DNA of 28,425 nt. It comes from a virus. Taxonomy: Duplodnaviria > Heunggongvirae > Uroviricota > Caudoviricetes. The notes under the pieces are model-generated. The model was not told the DNA's origin. It made no database searches and worked only from the letters and a program-made list of their open reading frames with translations. The DNA lies in IMG/VR virus record IMGVR_UViG_2619619134_000010; one strand, given 5' to 3'. The position numbers and the translations under genes are program-made. Below, one piece after another: positions 1 to 24,144 of the stretch (position 1 is the stretch's first letter; each line of letters begins with the position of its first letter).

Positions 1-246
1 TCATTACCGGAAGATGAATATTCAGCAGAGCAAGTGGCTGATTGTTACCGTCTGCGATGGCAAATTGAACTGGCTTTTAAGCGGCTCAAAAGTTTGCTGC
101 ACCTGGATGCTTTGCGTGCAAAGGAACCTGAACTCGCGAAAGCGTGGATATTTGCTAATCTACTCGCCGCATTTTTAATTGACGACATAATCCAGCCATC
201 GCTGGATTTCCCCCCCAGAAGTGCCGGATCCGAAAAGAAGAACTAA
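1..246 (+). mobile_element. 3' fragment of an IS-element DDE transposase gene (5' part lies outside the window)
   Basis: Frame open from nt 1 to TAA at 244-246; translation ...ADCYRLRWQIELAFKRLKS... carries the Y-x2-R-x3-E-x6-K (YREK) signature of IS4-superfamily transposases. Exact IS family and the terminal inverted repeat not determined. Confidence 0.6.
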
Positions 247-2814: not shown

Positions 2815-4478
2815 TGAACAAAGCCAGAGAAACGTCGCCTTCACTGATGCAAATGACGCCTCCCCGCAAAATTGATCTGTCCGGTGAAAAAGCCCTGCTG
2901 GGCGTGGATGTGCCGGACAGCCTTGATTTGCCCGGTGATATGCCGGTGTTTCTGGATTATCAGGCCCGCTGGTTTGCAGATGAAAGTCAGGTCTGCATCG
3001 CGGAGAAATCCCGCCGCACCGGTCTTACCTGGGCGGAAGCCGGGCGTAACGTCATTACTGCTGCAAAACCGAAGCGTCGTGGTGGCCGCAATGTGTTTTA
3101 TGTGGGATCAAAGCAGGAGATGGCGCTGGAATATATTTCTGCCTGCGCGCTGTTCTCCCGTGCCTTTAACCAGCTGGCAGATGCTGATGTGTATGAGCAG
3201 ACATTCTGGGATCGGGATAAAAAAGAAGAAATTTTGACCTACATGATCCGCTTTCCGAACAGTGGATTCAAAATTCAGGCATTGTCTTCCCGTCCGTCAA
3301 ACCTGCGCGGCCTTCAGGGGGATGTGGTGATTGATGAAGCCGCGTTCCACGAGTCACTGGATGAGCTTCTCAAGGCGGCAATGGCGCTCACTATGTGGGG
3401 CGCGCGCGTGCGTATTATCTCCACGCATAACGGCGTCGATAATCTGTTTAATCAGTACATTCAGGAAGCCCGCGAGGGGCGCAAGGATTACAGCGTCCAC
3501 CGCATAACCCTGGATGATGCCATTGCGGACGGGCTGTACCGTCGTATCTGTTACGTCACCGATCAGGAATGGTCACCGGAAAGCGAGCAGAAATGGCGTG
3601 ATGATCTCTACAAAAACGCCCCGACCCGTGAGGATGCCGACGAGGAATACGGCTGTATCCCGAAAAAATCCGGCGGTGCCTATATCCCCCACGCGCTTAT
3701 TGAAATGGCGATGATCCGCGACATCCCGATTCTGACGTTTGAAGCCCCGGACAACTTCATCAGCCGTGCCGCATGGCTGCGTGAATCGGAAGTTTTAACC
3801 TGGTGTGAAGAACATTTAAAACCGCTTTTAGAGAAATTAAATCCCCGTTCCCGCTTCAGCTTCGGGGAAGACTTTGCCCGCACCGGTGACCTGTCCTGCT
3901 TTATGCTGCTGGAAATCACCGAATCCCTGGCAAAGCGCGAGGTGTTTCGCGTGGAGCTGCGCAACCTGCCGTATGCCCAGCAGGAACAGGTGATGATGTA
4001 CATCCTGACCCGCGTTCCGGCGCTGGTCGGTGCGGCGTTCGACGCCACCGGTAACGGCGGCTATCTGGCAGAGGCCGCACTGCTGGCCTTTGGCCCGGAT
4101 ATCATCGACTGCGTGATGTTGTCGCCGAAGTGGTACGGCGAGTGGATGCCAAAACTGAAAGCCGAGTTTGAAGATCAGAATATCCTCGTCGCCCGCCATC
4201 AGACCACGCTTGATGATTTGCGCCATGTGAAGGTAGTGAATGGTATCCCGCAAATCGACAAGGGGCGCACGAAGGACCAGAACGCAACGGCTGCGAACGC
4301 CCGCCGCCATGGTGATTTTGCCGTGGCGCTCTGTATGGCAAACCGGGCGTCATACATGGAGGGCTTCATCCTGGATGAATCAGCCTGTCAGGCGCTACCG
4401 GAGCGGTCGCGGGCAATGGAGGGCGGTTATCGTGATGACGATGAGGCATATCATGAATTTGATCGGGGGGGCTGGTAG
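2811..4478 (+). CDS. Terminase large subunit (Mu gp28-like)
   Basis: 555 aa; Walker-B-like VVIDEAAF motif; position and size match Mu-type TerL; translationally coupled to flanking genes. Confidence 0.85.
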   Translation: MMNKARETSPSLMQMTPPRKIDLSGEKALLGVDVPDSLDLPGDMPVFLDYQARWFADESQVCIAEKSRRTGLTWAEAGRNVITAAKPKRRGGRNVFYVGSKQEMALEYISACALFSRAFNQLADADVYEQTFWDRDKKEEILTYMIRFPNSGFKIQALSSRPSNLRGLQGDVVIDEAAFHESLDELLKAAMALTMWGARVRIISTHNGVDNLFNQYIQEAREGRKDYSVHRITLDDAIADGLYRRICYVTDQEWSPESEQKWRDDLYKNAPTREDADEEYGCIPKKSGGAYIPHALIEMAMIRDIPILTFEAPDNFISRAAWLRESEVLTWCEEHLKPLLEKLNPRSRFSFGEDFARTGDLSCFMLLEITESLAKREVFRVELRNLPYAQQEQVMMYILTRVPALVGAAFDATGNGGYLAEAALLAFGPDIIDCVMLSPKWYGEWMPKLKAEFEDQNILVARHQTTLDDLRHVKVVNGIPQIDKGRTKDQNATAANARRHGDFAVALCMANRASYMEGFILDESACQALPERSRAMEGGYRDDDEAYHEFDRGGW

Positions 4479-6067
4479 TGGGACGCATCATTGATACTGA
4501 CGGAAAACCTTTCTCCTTTGACCCGGAGATGCAGAGTGCCGCGCTGGATATTCCGCAGATTGCCAGCCGTTATATTGAACATCCGGCTTCGGGTATCACC
4601 CCGAACCGGGCGGCGCAGTGCCTTCGCGGGGCTGAACGTGGCGATCTGATTGCCCAGTCCGATCTGGCCGCTGATATTGAAGAAAAGGACACCCACCTTT
4701 TTGCGGAGCTGGGCAAGCGACGTCTTGCCATTCAGGGGGTGCCATGGAGTATTGAGCCGCCACCGAACGCCAGCGCGAATGAGAAAAAGGACGCGGAAAT
4801 GCTCGACGAATATCTGCATTCCGCAGACTGGTTTGATGCCATGCTGTTTGACGCCACGGATGCCATCCTGAAGGGCTATTCCTGCATGGAAATTGAGCAC
4901 GGGATGCTCGGTAAAATGCACATCATCCGCGCCATCCGCTGGCGTGACAGCGGGCATTTCTGCCTTAACCCGGATGATTTGAGCGAACTGCGGCTGCGTG
5001 ACGGCAGCCATGCCGGGGTGGCGTTTCAGCCTTTTGGCTGGATAGTGCATCAGTCACGTTCACGGACCGGTTACGGTGGCGCAACGGGGCTTGTCAGGAC
5101 GCTTATCTGGCCGTTCATTTTCAAAAACTATTCCGTGCGCGATCTGGCCGAATTTCTGGAGGTGTACGGACTGCCGATGAAGGTCGGGAAATACCCGTCC
5201 GGGGCAACACCGGAGCAGAAAAGCGCCCTGATGCGGGCGGTGATGGATATCGGGCGACGTACAGGCGGGATCATCCCGGCCGGGATGTCGCTGGAATTTC
5301 AGGCGGCAGCAAACGGGCAGGCCGATCCATTTGAAACCATGATTTCGTGGGGGGAGCGTTCCATCTCCAAAGCAATACTCGGCGGCACGCTGACCACGGA
5401 AGCCGGAGACAAAGGCGCGCGCTCGCTGGGTGAGGTGCATAACGAGGTGCGCCGGGAAATCAGGGATTCTGATTTACGGCAGCTGGCTGCAACCCTGAAC
5501 CGCGATCTGGTGTATCCGCTGTACGCCCTGAACACCACGCACACTATTGATATCCGCCGTCTGCCACGTATCTGCTTCCAGACCAAAGAACCAGGTGATA
5601 TCACCAAAATCACCAGTGCGGTGATGCAGCTCAGTACGGGGATGGATATTTCTGATCCCTGGATACGGGAGCAGACCGGTATTCCGCAGCCCACGCCCGG
5701 TGAAGCCATATTCCGTGTCCGTCAGAGTGGCAATGAACCGGCTCAGACCGACAGGGAAACACCACCGGAAAAACAGGAAAAAACAGAGCAGACGGCGCTG
5801 TCAGCCAGACTGCCGGAAGCGAAAAGCACGCCGCGTGATGAACTGGATGATATGGGGGACGCGGTGCCTGCCCGCCGCTTACAGGAGGCCATCGACCCGG
5901 TACTGGAGCCGGTCATTGATGCCATCAGAACGCGGGGGCTGGCGGATGCGCTGGCAGACCTGCCTGCCCTTTATCGTGAAATGGATGATTCCCGCCTGAT
6001 GACGCTGCTCAGTGATGCCATGTTTGCTGCGGAAATGAAGGGGATGCTGGATGACACAGGGGATTGA
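4478..6067 (+). CDS. Portal protein (Mu gp29-like)
   Basis: 529 aa ORF immediately after TerL, start overlapping the TerL stop; acidic C-terminal region typical of portals. Confidence 0.8.
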   Translation: MGRIIDTDGKPFSFDPEMQSAALDIPQIASRYIEHPASGITPNRAAQCLRGAERGDLIAQSDLAADIEEKDTHLFAELGKRRLAIQGVPWSIEPPPNASANEKKDAEMLDEYLHSADWFDAMLFDATDAILKGYSCMEIEHGMLGKMHIIRAIRWRDSGHFCLNPDDLSELRLRDGSHAGVAFQPFGWIVHQSRSRTGYGGATGLVRTLIWPFIFKNYSVRDLAEFLEVYGLPMKVGKYPSGATPEQKSALMRAVMDIGRRTGGIIPAGMSLEFQAAANGQADPFETMISWGERSISKAILGGTLTTEAGDKGARSLGEVHNEVRREIRDSDLRQLAATLNRDLVYPLYALNTTHTIDIRRLPRICFQTKEPGDITKITSAVMQLSTGMDISDPWIREQTGIPQPTPGEAIFRVRQSGNEPAQTDRETPPEKQEKTEQTALSARLPEAKSTPRDELDDMGDAVPARRLQEAIDPVLEPVIDAIRTRGLADALADLPALYREMDDSRLMTLLSDAMFAAEMKGMLDDTGD

Positions 6068-21011: not shown

Positions 21012-21562
21012 CCCTGACCCCGCATCAGCGCGCCCTGTTGCAGTTACTGCCTGACGGGCTGGCATGGGACAAGCGTCCGTCATCCGTACTGGCATCATTA
21101 TGTCTGGGCCTCAGTCATTCGACAGCGCGTGTATCCTGGACGGGTAAACAGCTGCTTGCCGAGCGTTTCCCTGACACGTCGCGCCTGCTGCTGGAAGACT
21201 GGGAGCGTTATCTCGGGCTTCCCGAGTGTGATATGGCCGGAGCCACCCTCACGGAGCGACAGCGTTATGCCGGAAATAAATACCGGATGAAGCCCTCGCT
21301 GAACCGTGAATTTTATATCCGGTTTGCGGCGGAGTTTGGTTATCAGATTGACATTCAGCCCTCACCGGATTCGCAGTGGGTCAGTATTGTCACGATTAAC
21401 AGTGAAACCGGCTACCGGAATATGAATGTGCTGGATGATATTCTCACGCCGCTGCGTATTTATGAAGGCGGTGCGCTGGAATGTATTCTGAACCGTTATA
21501 AGCCTGCATGGCAGACGTTTATTTACGTTTATGCAAACAGCCATGAAGAGGAGACTATTTAA
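21002..21562 (+). CDS. Tail/baseplate protein (Mu gp48-like)
   Basis: 186 aa; overlaps the upstream gene; immediately precedes the tail fibre gene. Confidence 0.7.
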
Positions 21563-22452
21563 TGTTTCATGTTGATAATAATTCCGGCGTGGCGAATATG
21601 CCTGCGCTGGCACCGGCGCAGAGTAATACCACCACCTGGTTTACCGAAGGTGACGGACAAAAAGGTATCAGCTGGATTGGTCAGGACTGGCTGAATATTC
21701 TCCAGGCCGAACTGCTGAATATTCTGGCTGAAGCCAGTATTCAGCCGGATAAGGCGCAGTTAAACCAGCTTACGCTGTCCATTAAAGCCATTATCGCTGC
21801 GAATGCCTTTTCCCGGAAAAATAACCTGAAAGAAATTGCTGATGCCGGTGCGGAGGCCCAGCGTCTGGCCCGTGGTTATCTTGGTCTGGGGACGCTTGCC
21901 ACAAAAAACAGTCTTGGTCCCGCTGACGTTAATGCCCTGGCGAAGGATCAGAATCTCGCCGACCTGGAGAATAAGGGAACCGCCCGTAATAATCTGGATG
22001 TTTACAGCAAAAGCGAAGGTGATAACCGTTACCTGCGCAGGGAGCAGAACGGCGCAGACATTCCGGATAAAGGGGCTTTTATCGATAACGTCGGTTTACG
22101 GGAAACGGTAAACAGGGCGGCGAATGCCCTGCCATCGGACGGCACCGCCGTTGCCGCGAATAGACTCGCCACCCCAAGAAATATTAATGGGGTTCCCTTT
22201 GACGGGACGCAGGACATAAACATCACTTCTGGTATAACACAGCAGGATGCGGATTCCCGATATATCCAGGATATCAGGCTGGGAGCAGAGAACAGGCAGG
22301 TAATGTACGGTGGGGCATATTACTCTGCGTACGGTAATGTTATGGCAGGCCTGCAGATTGACAGTAAAGTTGATGCTTCAAACGATTTTATAGCATTCAG
22401 ACCCCTGCAAAAATTAGTCGGAGGTACATGGATTACGGTATCTCAGTTATAA
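21562..22452 (+). CDS. Tail fibre protein: constant N-terminal part (to about 22091) fused to the variable tip Sv currently in the expressed orientation
   Basis: 296 aa; the crossover site lies inside the ORF; C-terminus ...[15 protein letters not shown] parallels the alternative tip on the minus strand (...LQYLLNGAWVTAASI). Confidence 0.8.
22079..22104. other. gix-like crossover site (left) for the Gin-family invertase
   Basis: TTATCGATAACGTCGGTTTACGGGAA matches the remembered Mu gix sequence TTATCCAAAACCTCGGTTTACAGGAA at about 22 of 26 positions; lies inside the tail-fibre ORF. Confidence 0.7.
22092..22214. repeat. Left copy of ~123-bp inverted repeat at the inner side of the left crossover site
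   Basis: Reverse complement reappears at 23286..23408; the mirror-frame ORFs 22029..22226(-) and 23181..23474(+) share the identical peptide ...[26 protein letters not shown]. One ~10-bp diverged patch (about 22170-22181). Confidence 0.85.
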
Positions 22453-22503
22453 ATAGTCAGTAAATAATATATTTTAAAACAGATTTATTTCCAGGAGGAT
22501 TTT

Positions 22504-23025
22504 ATGGAACTAAAAAATATAACCCGTTATTATCCTGAAAATATGCCATATGGTAATAATGTTCAGTATTTCCAGAGTGAAGATGGTAAGGATTTCTACG
22601 AATCCCTGCCATTATTCACCAAAAAATATAAACTTTGCATAACACCTGACAGCGGCGTTATCTGCTCAATATCACAGGACGCCTCGGCGCTGTATCCTGC
22701 GGGGTTTTCTGTGGTTGAGGTCGATGAACTCCCTGAAGGCACGGATATTTCAGGAAACTGGAAGTTTGATAATGGCATAATCTCCCGTATTCCGGTTAAC
22801 TACGCAAGAAAACTGGAAGCAATGCGCCAGTCATATCTTAATCAGGCATATGAAAAAATTAATGACTGGAGAACGGAGCTACAACTGGGCACCATCAGCG
22901 ATGAAGACAGAGCAGCACTTACCCAATGGATGGCATACATCAGTCAGGTGAAGAAAATGGAACTCCCCGCCATTAAAACAGAAGCTGAATTTAACGCCAT
23001 TAAATGGCCTGAGCAGCCACAGTAA
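22504..23025 (+). CDS. Tail fibre assembly protein (chaperone, Mu U / lambda Tfa family)
   Basis: 173 aa; C-terminus ...LTQWMAYISQVKKMELPAIKTEAEFNAIKWPEQPQ resembles the Tfa-family C-terminal signature; AGGAGG upstream; AT-rich relative to flanks. Confidence 0.8.
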   Translation: MELKNITRYYPENMPYGNNVQYFQSEDGKDFYESLPLFTKKYKLCITPDSGVICSISQDASALYPAGFSVVEVDELPEGTDISGNWKFDNGIISRIPVNYARKLEAMRQSYLNQAYEKINDWRTELQLGTISDEDRAALTQWMAYISQVKKMELPAIKTEAEFNAIKWPEQPQ

Positions 23026-23028
23026 TAA

Positions 23029-23048
23029 AGAAGGCCGGAAGGCCTTCT
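23029..23048. terminator. Hairpin between convergent U and S'v reading frames (candidate bidirectional terminator)
   Basis: agaaggcc-ggaa-ggccttct: 8-bp stem with tetraloop, AT-rich flanks on both sides. Confidence 0.5.
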
Positions 23049-23056
23049 GAATATCA

Positions 23057-23408
23057 TTATATACTTGCAGCCGTCACCCATGCTCCATTTAACAGATACT
23101 GCAACGGCCGGTAATACACGCCGCCGACGTTATCTGCCGTATTCTTACCGACATCCTGTACTTTAATTCCGGTAAGAACATTGCCGCCCCCCAGATTCAG
23201 ATCCCAGCTTTCCCATGTTCCGGGCATATGTGCGGTCACCGACCCCAGTCTTATGGCGGTTACTGTTCCTGATGAGATAGTGATATCCTGCGTCCCGTCA
23301 AAGGGAACACCATTAATTGTGTGGGCATTTGCCAGCCTGTTCGCGGCAACGGCGGTGCCGTCCGATGGCAGGGCATTCGCCGCCCTGTTTACCGTTTCCC
23401 GTAAACCG
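23057..23408 (-). CDS. Alternative tail-fibre variable tip S'v: promoterless, start-less cassette in the silent orientation
   Basis: Minus-strand frame open from the right crossover site to the stop at 23057; translation ...[46 protein letters not shown]...YYRPLQYLLNGAWVTAASI is in frame with the constant tail-fibre part after inversion. Listed ORF 23057..23239 is its 3' portion. Confidence 0.75.
23286..23408. repeat. Right copy of ~123-bp inverted repeat
   Basis: Reverse complement of 22092..22214 (see left copy). Confidence 0.85.
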
Positions 23409-23421
23409 AGGTTTTCAGGAA
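23396..23421. other. gix-like crossover site (right)
   Basis: TTCCCGTAAACCGAGGTTTTCAGGAA, near-palindromic, about 22 of 26 matches to the Mu gix sequence; sits about 65 bp upstream of the invertase start. Confidence 0.7.
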
Positions 23422-23486
23422 AGCCAGGATTAACTCTGTTTTATTCCTCATGCGACAATTCCGGCTTTTTATAATAAGGAAATCGT

Positions 23487-24059
23487 ATGCTGATTGGGTA
23501 TATCAGGGTGTCAACAAATGACCAGAATACGGCGCTACAAAGAAATGCGCTGGAATGTGCAGGATGTGAGCTGTTTTTCGAAGACAGAATAAGCGGTAAG
23601 ACAAGGGAGCGTCCCGGACTTAAACGCGCATTAAAGCGACTCCGGCCAGGGGATACCCTGCTGGTCTGGAAACTGGATCGCCTTGGACGCAGTATGCAGC
23701 ACCTTGTCCTTTTAACAGAAGAACTCCGGCAACGCGGCGTTAACTTCCGCAGCATTACGGACAATATTGATACATCCACTCCCATGGGACGTTTCTTTTT
23801 CCATATAATGGGCGCGCTGGCGGAAATGGAGCGGGAACTCATTATTGAACGTACACGCGCGGGTCTTGCTGCTGCCCGTGCTCAGGGGCGTCATGGCGGC
23901 AGACCTCAGAAACTGACAGAGAAAGAGCGGGAGCAAATCGCCCGTTTGCTGGCTAATGGCGAGTCCCGTAAACAAATCGCACTGATATTTGATATTGGCC
24001 TTTCCACCCTTTATCGTTATTTTCCTGCCTCACCAGCTCCGTCACCAAAAGTACCGTGA
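23487..24059 (+). CDS. gin: Serine recombinase DNA invertase (Gin/Pin/Cin/Hin family)
   Basis: MLIGYIRVSTNDQNTALQRNAL...LVWKLDRLGRSMQHL...MGRFFFHIMGALAEMERELIIERT...: catalytic Ser in the YxRVST motif and C-terminal HTH; near-identical over long stretches to remembered Mu Gin. Confidence 0.95.
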   Translation: MLIGYIRVSTNDQNTALQRNALECAGCELFFEDRISGKTRERPGLKRALKRLRPGDTLLVWKLDRLGRSMQHLVLLTEELRQRGVNFRSITDNIDTSTPMGRFFFHIMGALAEMERELIIERTRAGLAAARAQGRHGGRPQKLTEKEREQIARLLANGESRKQIALIFDIGLSTLYRYFPASPAPSPKVP

Positions 24060-24144
24060 CGCTTTTTTGAATTTCCGCAAAACACATATTTTTCAGCGGT
24101 CGCTATTCTGACTCTGTTTAATTCAGAAACAGGCAGAAAAGACG

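Follow-up and report, generated by a model that had tools for sequence, protein, structure and literature searches.

Tail-fibre tips and their assembly chaperones set the host range of phages and tailocins, and both parts are swapped when phages are re-targeted. As a rule, every tip is encoded together with a chaperone gene of its own, placed immediately downstream. The G segment of phage Mu, flipped by the serine invertase Gin, exchanges the C-terminus of the tail fibre, and the P segment of e14 (PinE), the C segment of P1 (Cin) and p15B (Min) are likewise serine-invertase switches of fibre C-termini. Mu carries one fibre-assembly gene per tip (S-U / U'-S'), as do e14 (stfP-tfaP / tfaE-stfE) and P1 (S-U / U'-S'). 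Here we describe a fibre switch with two alternative tips and a single assembly gene, tfa, in a virus sequence of 28,425 nucleotides (nt) (IMG/VR record IMGVR_UViG_2619619134_000010; the window is this whole stretch of DNA).

Judged by its sequence, the element is a predicted host-range switch of an Sp18-type Mu-like prophage of Escherichia coli. On the comparisons given below, the most likely reading is that one Tfa serves both tips and is expressed in either orientation, a proposition we regard as evenly poised. The invertible region of Sp18 was noted earlier as 'distinct from Mu' (PMC2669165), and inversion was demonstrated experimentally for a Mu prophage of enteropathogenic E. coli (PMC4272514), which may or may not belong to the Sp18 family. 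A published analysis of the single-chaperone asymmetry was not found in the searchable literature.

The window covers most of a Mu-like prophage, with portal, head, sheath and tape measure genes, the gp45-gp48 baseplate genes and com/mom. The Sp18-type gene order gp47 - gp48/YmfQ - short S-like fibre - tfa - invertase - DUF6645 - DUF1378 - com/mom is present, with DNA similarity. By gene order and similarity the element is a member of the already known Sp18 family of E. coli Mu-like prophages. Sp18 of E. coli O157:H7 Sakai and its relatives have an identical architecture and about 85% DNA identity to the window in the constant part of the fibre gene (Sc) plus the invertase gene. The cassettes differ. 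The O157 prophages combine tip B, Tfa type 2 and alternative tip X2, whereas the window carries tip A, Tfa type 1 and X1.

The Mu G segment and the present locus have much in common. In both, the fibre gene follows gp47 and gp48 (gp48/YmfQ here), the fibre and assembly genes are S and U homologs, a Gin-like invertase and a gix core are present, the invertase gene starts about 60 nt beyond gixR (66 nt in the window), and com/mom lies downstream. The fibre matches Mu S (PDB 5yvq_A, E 4.9e-51) over its N-terminal ~198 amino acids (aa) plus the last ~70 aa, and the tfa product matches Mu U (PDB 5yvq_B, E 4.2e-16). The differences from Mu are equally plain. Mu has two tfa genes in a 3-kb segment, compared with one in 1.3 kb here. 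Its fibre has 504 aa, compared with 296 or 293 aa, the present one being shorter because the middle of S is missing. The gap between tip and tfa is 2 nt in Mu and 51 nt in the window. e14 also has YmfQ/gp48-like baseplate genes upstream, and pinE is a 76% DNA match to the window invertase gene. In P1, as here, the extended inverted repeats are formed by the start common to both tips.

A single Caudo_TAP gene, co-oriented with the current tip, lies in the 1.3-kb segment, and no other open reading frame (ORF) there is Tfa-like; an earlier reading of the DNA made without database searches (the sequence-only reading) had already pointed to this departure from the two genes of Mu. One assembly gene per tip, the arrangement of Mu, was found neither in the window nor in any family member examined. 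The current tip, class A, and the silent tip on the minus strand, class X1, are strongly different in sequence. In its C-terminus, X1 shows homology to two fibre tips, that of phiTE (9cuy_c, E 2.4e-10) and that of Mu S' (8ju3_A, E 1.3e-4). An Rfam scan of the region gave no match.

Inversion at the gix-like sites

The two gix-like sites placed by the sequence-only reading on either side of the segment were confirmed to the exact coordinate (Table 1). They are inverted and imperfectly palindromic, and their central dinucleotides (TC/GA) match each other and that of Mu gix. A repeat finder returned inverted repeats with main arms of 86 nt (22084-22169 / 23331-23416, 94% complementary) and a second block of 50 nt (22183-22232 / 23268-23317, 84%). 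These repeats contain a 68-bp perfect stretch. The invertase is 74% identical to Mu Gin over 184 aa (blastp) and has the catalytic-serine motif YIRVST. The first 240 nt of its gene, the part in which switches of this kind have a Fis-dependent recombinational enhancer, align to Mu gin without gaps, for which coding constraint alone is a sufficient explanation.

Inversion in silico placed the minus-strand cassette (23408 to the stop at 23057) in frame with Sc, giving a fibre of 293 aa. The result was the same when the segment was cut at the repeat boundaries (22084-23416) or at the cores; the true junctions are 22091/92 and 23408/09. The alternative C-terminal tip proposed from the sequence is borne out by natural inverted copies, in which the NCBI Prokaryotic Genome Annotation Pipeline (PGAP) annotates a tail-protein gene of 882 nt followed by tfa in antisense. 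The antisense position of tfa relative to the late operon after inversion, also foreseen, is thus seen in annotated genomes. A segment found in one orientation only, or a cassette out of frame, had been named as findings that would speak against the switch; both orientations are present in public genomes and the cassette is in frame.

Related DNA was found in 236 of 5426 complete E. coli genomes, and the orientation counts compare these genomes with each other. About 5 copies >95% identical lie in the window orientation and 18 in the opposite one. Compared directly, the window and a copy in strain AST46 (L010) show differences at 812/2898 positions; once one of them is inverted in silico at the cores, 2/2898 remain. 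For the two copies of strain DLI.5a the same operation leaves 1/2897. The outer half-sites are fixed in both natural orientations, and a single nucleotide polymorphism (SNP) 36 nt inside the core moves with the segment. Taken together, the 1-2 nt residual differences, the fixed outer half-sites and the travelling SNP point to a Gin-type exchange at 22091/92 and 23408/09. The element is almost certainly a Gin-type switch that truly flips. The Gin-like invertase recombines the two gix sites at the central TC/GA and flips 22092-23408, which joins Sc to tip A or to tip X1.

Three strains carry two copies in opposite orientations: DLI.5a (L002/L011), TOE17 (L007/L008) and AST46 (L009/L010). Several of these copies have a frameshifted invertase gene, and L009 has frameshifted tips as well. 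Because invertases act in trans, frameshifted copies can still flip, and their flipping would then depend on invertase supplied in trans.

One inverted copy, L001 (NZ_CM167690.1, strain NCCP 13905; 3518-4853), is chimeric. In this copy ~90 nt between gix and the second repeat block are unmoved on both sides, with 36 clustered mismatches after a flip at gix, and the exchange point lies within the second repeat block (22183-22232 / 23268-23317 in the window), not at the gix core. L001 may reflect misassembly of DNA from a culture holding both orientations, a rare homologous (RecA-type) exchange, or a secondary crossover site.

The exchange point of L001, the perfect 68-bp stretch and the finding of frameshifted-invertase copies in either orientation are what could be said for inversion by general homologous recombination between the 86-nt repeats, rather than by the invertase at gix. 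We regard this as scarcely credible, since gixR is followed after 66 nt by an intact Gin homolog, much as in Mu, 21-22/26 positions of the sites agree with gix and the cores match, and the outer half-sites never move while the SNP 36 nt inside does.

Three promoter-like sites on the minus strand (22493-22464, 22556-22529 and 22652-22625), all consensus matches only, are found at the 5' end of tfa, directed away from the gene. Once the segment is flipped they would be aimed at gixR and the invertase gene, which could make expression of the invertase depend on orientation.

Tip classes, orientation and locked derivatives

Five further variants were examined, L003 (O157:H7 Sp18-type), L004, L005, L006 and L014. 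In all variants the order is Sc, a tip followed by tfa, a second tip convergent to tfa, the invertase gene and the DUF6645 gene, always with one tfa. The tip linked to tfa is of class A, class B or the Mu-S-like class C, which are mutually unrelated. The tip lacking tfa is class X in every Sp18-family variant, with the motif ADN[IV]GGVY[YF]RP[LV]Q. All tips of the family end in a common motif, [YF]R[PQ]xQ..[IL]N..W, and the asymmetry is kept across six tip/tfa combinations.

A survey of IMG/VR yielded 80 X-type tips, 31 in Sp18-family loci and 49 in other loci. tfa was convergent to X in 31/31 Sp18-family loci, of which 14 were complete with X active, 6 had X silent, 7 were locked (see below) and the remainder were cut by contig ends. 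X-active was the commoner orientation in every type. Among ~181 high-identity copies of the O157 type in complete genomes, essentially all had X2 active and tfa antisense; the opposite orientation was found in only a few IMG/VR contigs (L102, L109). The O157 Sp18-type copies may thus have a strong orientation bias or switch slowly.

The locked derivatives share one deletion, which took the linked tip, gixR and about 160 invertase codons and left Sc-X, the antisense tfa and the DUF6645 gene. There are seven in IMG/VR (L044, L047, L066, L070, L071, L075 and L079) and seven in the 5426 complete E. coli genomes. The genome loci inspected (L118-L121) lie at four host sites: xdhA (E. coli CI5), hsdR (M18), next to citF (JE86-ST05) and bcsA (S1-CAM-01-A). 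With four different sites, the locked form must have moved after the deletion, probably to new hosts. A tfa that is never expressed, or whose only client has been deleted, would be expected to decay. The locked tfa is still 522 nt without frameshift; one indel was seen, in an assembly full of frameshifts. Between sub-lineages it shows 20-56 differences and a ratio of nonsynonymous to synonymous substitution (dN/dS) of 0.10-0.23, and across the whole family dN/dS of tfa is 0.10-0.27.

A perfect TATAAT faces tfa at the deletion junction of the locked derivatives, as a consensus match only.

The X cassettes are also constrained. dN/dS was 0.04-0.13 for X1 cassettes and 0.04-0.14 for X1 and X2 together, with synonymous divergence (dS) from 0.07 to >1. 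By this measure the X tips are under purifying selection. The low dN/dS of the X tips and the majority of X-active copies make a decaying remnant unlikely, and both tips are very probably functional. We therefore give little credence to the alternative that the X orientation is an OFF state, or the decaying remnant of a four-gene Mu-like segment minus U', producing particles without working fibres. Deletion of a second tfa could indeed leave one, the prophage in the window is disrupted by an insertion sequence (IS), and some copies have frameshifted invertases. On the other side, the constraint on X extends over dS values up to >1, X-active is the majority orientation, X-only locked derivatives inserted at four host sites after the deletion, and the asymmetry is conserved over six tip/tfa combinations. 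An OFF state or remnant is very improbable.

Partner tips and expression of tfa

Class X is not confined to the Sp18 family. In 49/49 non-Sp18 loci of the IMG/VR survey a co-oriented tfa lies 2-18 nt (median 2) downstream of the X-type tip. X-type tips of SfMu, Actinobacillus phage pPE4 and Pectobacterium phage POP15 likewise have tfa immediately downstream. Thus the X class is not chaperone-free by habit, and the idea that X tips are intrinsically chaperone-free was weakened by the 49 loci.

These data bear on the main rival of a shared Tfa, in which the X tip needs no Tfa to fold, the only client of tfa is the co-oriented tip (A, B or C), and the gene goes unexpressed when X is active. Several points agree with it: tfa is always directly downstream of and co-oriented with a non-X tip, a terminator-like hairpin follows the X tip, consensus and weight-matrix scans found no tfa promoter, and the orphan is always of the same class, which would follow if X tips of this family had lost their need for a chaperone. 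It has to contend with the tfa next to X tips in all the other loci and in SfMu, pPE4 and POP15, and with the locked X-only phages, which keep an intact, constrained tfa despite the deleted client tip. It also has to contend with Citrobacter braakii, in which the X-type tip is the one linked to tfa. We consider a chaperone-free X tip unlikely, though it deserves more weight than the other alternatives.

The C. braakii case is a Mu-like prophage of strain ATCC 51113 (L020, 6819-9223). It shares with the window a Mu-like fibre switch, a Gin homolog and one tfa for several tips, but has three gix-like sites, three tips and a tfa of 229 aa linked to the X-type tip. The orphan tips are not class X. 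This locus is a shufflon-like version of the one-chaperone design, so that one-chaperone switches are not confined to E. coli. As a general rule, 'orphan tip always class X' was rejected by it outside E. coli.

Tfa type does not follow the tip to which it is linked. Type 1 was found with A and C, and type 2 with B and C. SfMu gp51, which hardly differs from Mu U, nevertheless adjoins an X-like tip, while Mu U serves the class-C-like Mu S. Types 1 and 2 are 72% identical in the N-terminal 98 aa and 47% in the remainder. North et al. (2019) reportedly found that the N-domain of Tfa binds the C-terminus of the fibre. The absence of co-variation between Tfa and tip, the case of SfMu gp51, the conserved N-terminal half of Tfa and the common C-terminal motif of the tips make a generalist Tfa plausible. 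In such a scheme, the conserved N-terminal half of the single Tfa would recognise the common tip motif.

Another source of Tfa could be imagined for the X tip: a tfa of a co-resident prophage, a second copy in the opposite orientation, or copies flipped during replicative transposition. Several tfa genes of the lambdoid kind are commonly present in an E. coli genome, and DLI.5a, TOE17 and AST46 carry two oppositely oriented copies of the prophage region. We hold this to be improbable. A chance helper would be a poor basis for a layout conserved in all variants and 236 genomes, it leaves the constrained tfa of the locked X-only phages unexplained, and the N-terminal halves of Tfa proteins from other phages are strongly different.

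If the family's own Tfa serves the X tip, we would expect it to be made in both orientations from a signal travelling with or adjoining tfa, not by read-through of the late operon. When X is active, the fibre gene and tfa are convergent, with the terminator-like hairpin between them. The sequence-only reading had offered two options, an alternative tip that needs no chaperone or a tfa promoter inside the segment, and had named the AT-rich spacer between the stop of tip A and the start of tfa as a candidate for the latter. The length of the spacer is a hint in its favour as the site of a tfa promoter. The gap between tip and tfa is 51, 79 or about 120 nt (up to 121) in the E. coli one-tfa switches and 69 nt in C. 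braakii. Elsewhere it is 2-6 nt (Mu with its 2 nt, SfMu, pPE4, POP15), and the median over the 49 other loci is 2 nt.

Other results weigh against a shared Tfa with its own signal. A sigma-70 consensus scan of 21500-24200 found no good match on the tfa (+) strand in the spacer at 22453-22503. A crude position weight matrix (PWM) scan returned only weak or unconserved candidates for a tfa promoter. The spacers upstream of tfa in classes A, B and C were unrelated on alignment except for the ribosome-binding region, so no common promoter motif can be claimed, and the promoter assignment of the spacer was left unsupported apart from its length. The Mu C-type site TTAT-N6-ATAA was not found within the segment. 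Binding of Tfa to the tips is itself an extrapolation from the homologous Mu S-U (5YVQ) and from the reported N-domain interaction. The locked tfa is more diverged than the flanking intergenic DNA (the lock-specific 304-nt intergenic region has diverged at up to 14/304 positions), which means that recombination with unlocked relatives probably imported alleles. Part of the dN/dS signal of the locked tfa may have been imported in this way. Finally, the prophage copy in the window may be defective because an IS cuts its left side.

The best match of these promoter scans, TTGACA-17-AACGAT at 22358 inside the tip gene, was rejected; its -10 is poor and it is not conserved in the sister variant L014. 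Inspection of the intergenic regions of the window by eye gave no common motif that might mark the phage's own late promoters, and the lys promoter region lies outside the window.

With these points set against the constrained tfa of locked relatives and the X-type tips that have their own tfa elsewhere, the comparative evidence leans towards expression of tfa independent of orientation.

Features of the locus and significance

Table 1. Coordinates of the fibre switch and adjoining features in the window
Feature	Position	Strand	Remarks
Tail-fibre gene as now assembled, 296 aa	21562-22452	+	constant part Sc from 21562 to crossover 22091/92; class A tip 22092-22452
Left crossover site (gixL-like), 26 bp	22079-22104	.	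TTATCGATAACG-TC-GGTTTACGGGAA; core TC at 22091-22092; 22/26 identical to Mu gix
Left arm of extended inverted repeat	22084-22232	.	start common to both tips (RETVN...); repeat finder and alignment
AT-rich spacer, 51 nt, 78% A+T	22453-22503	+	tip A stop to tfa start; ends in strong Shine-Dalgarno AGGAGG
Tail-fibre assembly (chaperone) gene tfa, 173 aa	22504-23025	+	Pfam Caudo_TAP PF02413, E 4.8e-19, 69.2 bits against a cut-off of 22.1
GC-rich hairpin between convergent tfa and X-tip genes	23029-23048	.	8-bp stem, 5 GC pairs; T-rich tail on minus strand, terminator-like there; also a palindrome in the repeat finder
Silent alternative tip cassette, class X1, without own chaperone gene	23057-23408	-	ends ...ADNVGGVYYRPLQYLLNGAWVTAASI; in frame after inversion
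Right arm of extended inverted repeat	23268-23416	.	repeat finder
Right crossover site (gixR-like), 26 bp	23396-23421	.	TTCCCGTAAACC-GA-GGTTTTCAGGAA; core GA at 23408-23409; 21/26 identical to Mu gix
Promoter-like element before invertase gene	23447-23475	+	perfect -10 TATAAT at 23470-23475, weak -35; crude PWM scan, consensus match only
Serine DNA invertase, 190 aa, intact	23487-24059	+	Pfam Resolvase, E 1.6e-51; HTH_7, E 4.9e-15

The left end of the window (1-246, plus strand; about 1-420) is taken up by the 3' end of an IS transposase gene (DDE_Tnp_1, E 8e-14), which directly adjoins the phage lysis region. To the right of the invertase gene, 24145-26199 (plus strand) encodes a protein of 684 aa with a SASA sialate-O-acetylesterase-like domain and DUF6645. 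This gene stands between the invertase gene and com/mom in every family member, and Mu has nothing at the position. Its product could be a surface-glycan-modifying or tail-associated enzyme. The Mu C-activator-type dyad TTAT-N6-ATAA occurs once in the window, at 26537-26550 (plus strand), just upstream of an ORF starting at 26563; 0.21 occurrences are expected by chance. An ORF of 97 aa (23181-23474, plus strand) runs antisense across the right repeat arm and gixR. Its 3' part is annotated by PGAP as a hypothetical protein in both orientations (WP_071995513.1 / WP_071995466.1), and the ORF is probably spurious.

To DNA inversion as such the system contributes no new kind of mechanism. Our tentative view, held at somewhat less than even confidence, is that this family reduced the Mu switch to flipping of tips only. 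One generalist Tfa, with its own orientation-independent signal, would fold at least four unrelated tip classes (A, B, C and X) and would, in one of every two states, be transcribed convergently to its client fibre gene, and the locked X-only descendants would be a viable stand-alone design. About 4% of complete E. coli genomes carry the system, as do nearly all Sp18-carrying O157:H7 strains. If the view is true, one chaperone for several tip classes relaxes the rule that each tip has its own, and would be a generalist chaperone well suited to the engineering of fibres. A Mu-type tip needing no chaperone, the alternative, would likewise relax the rule.

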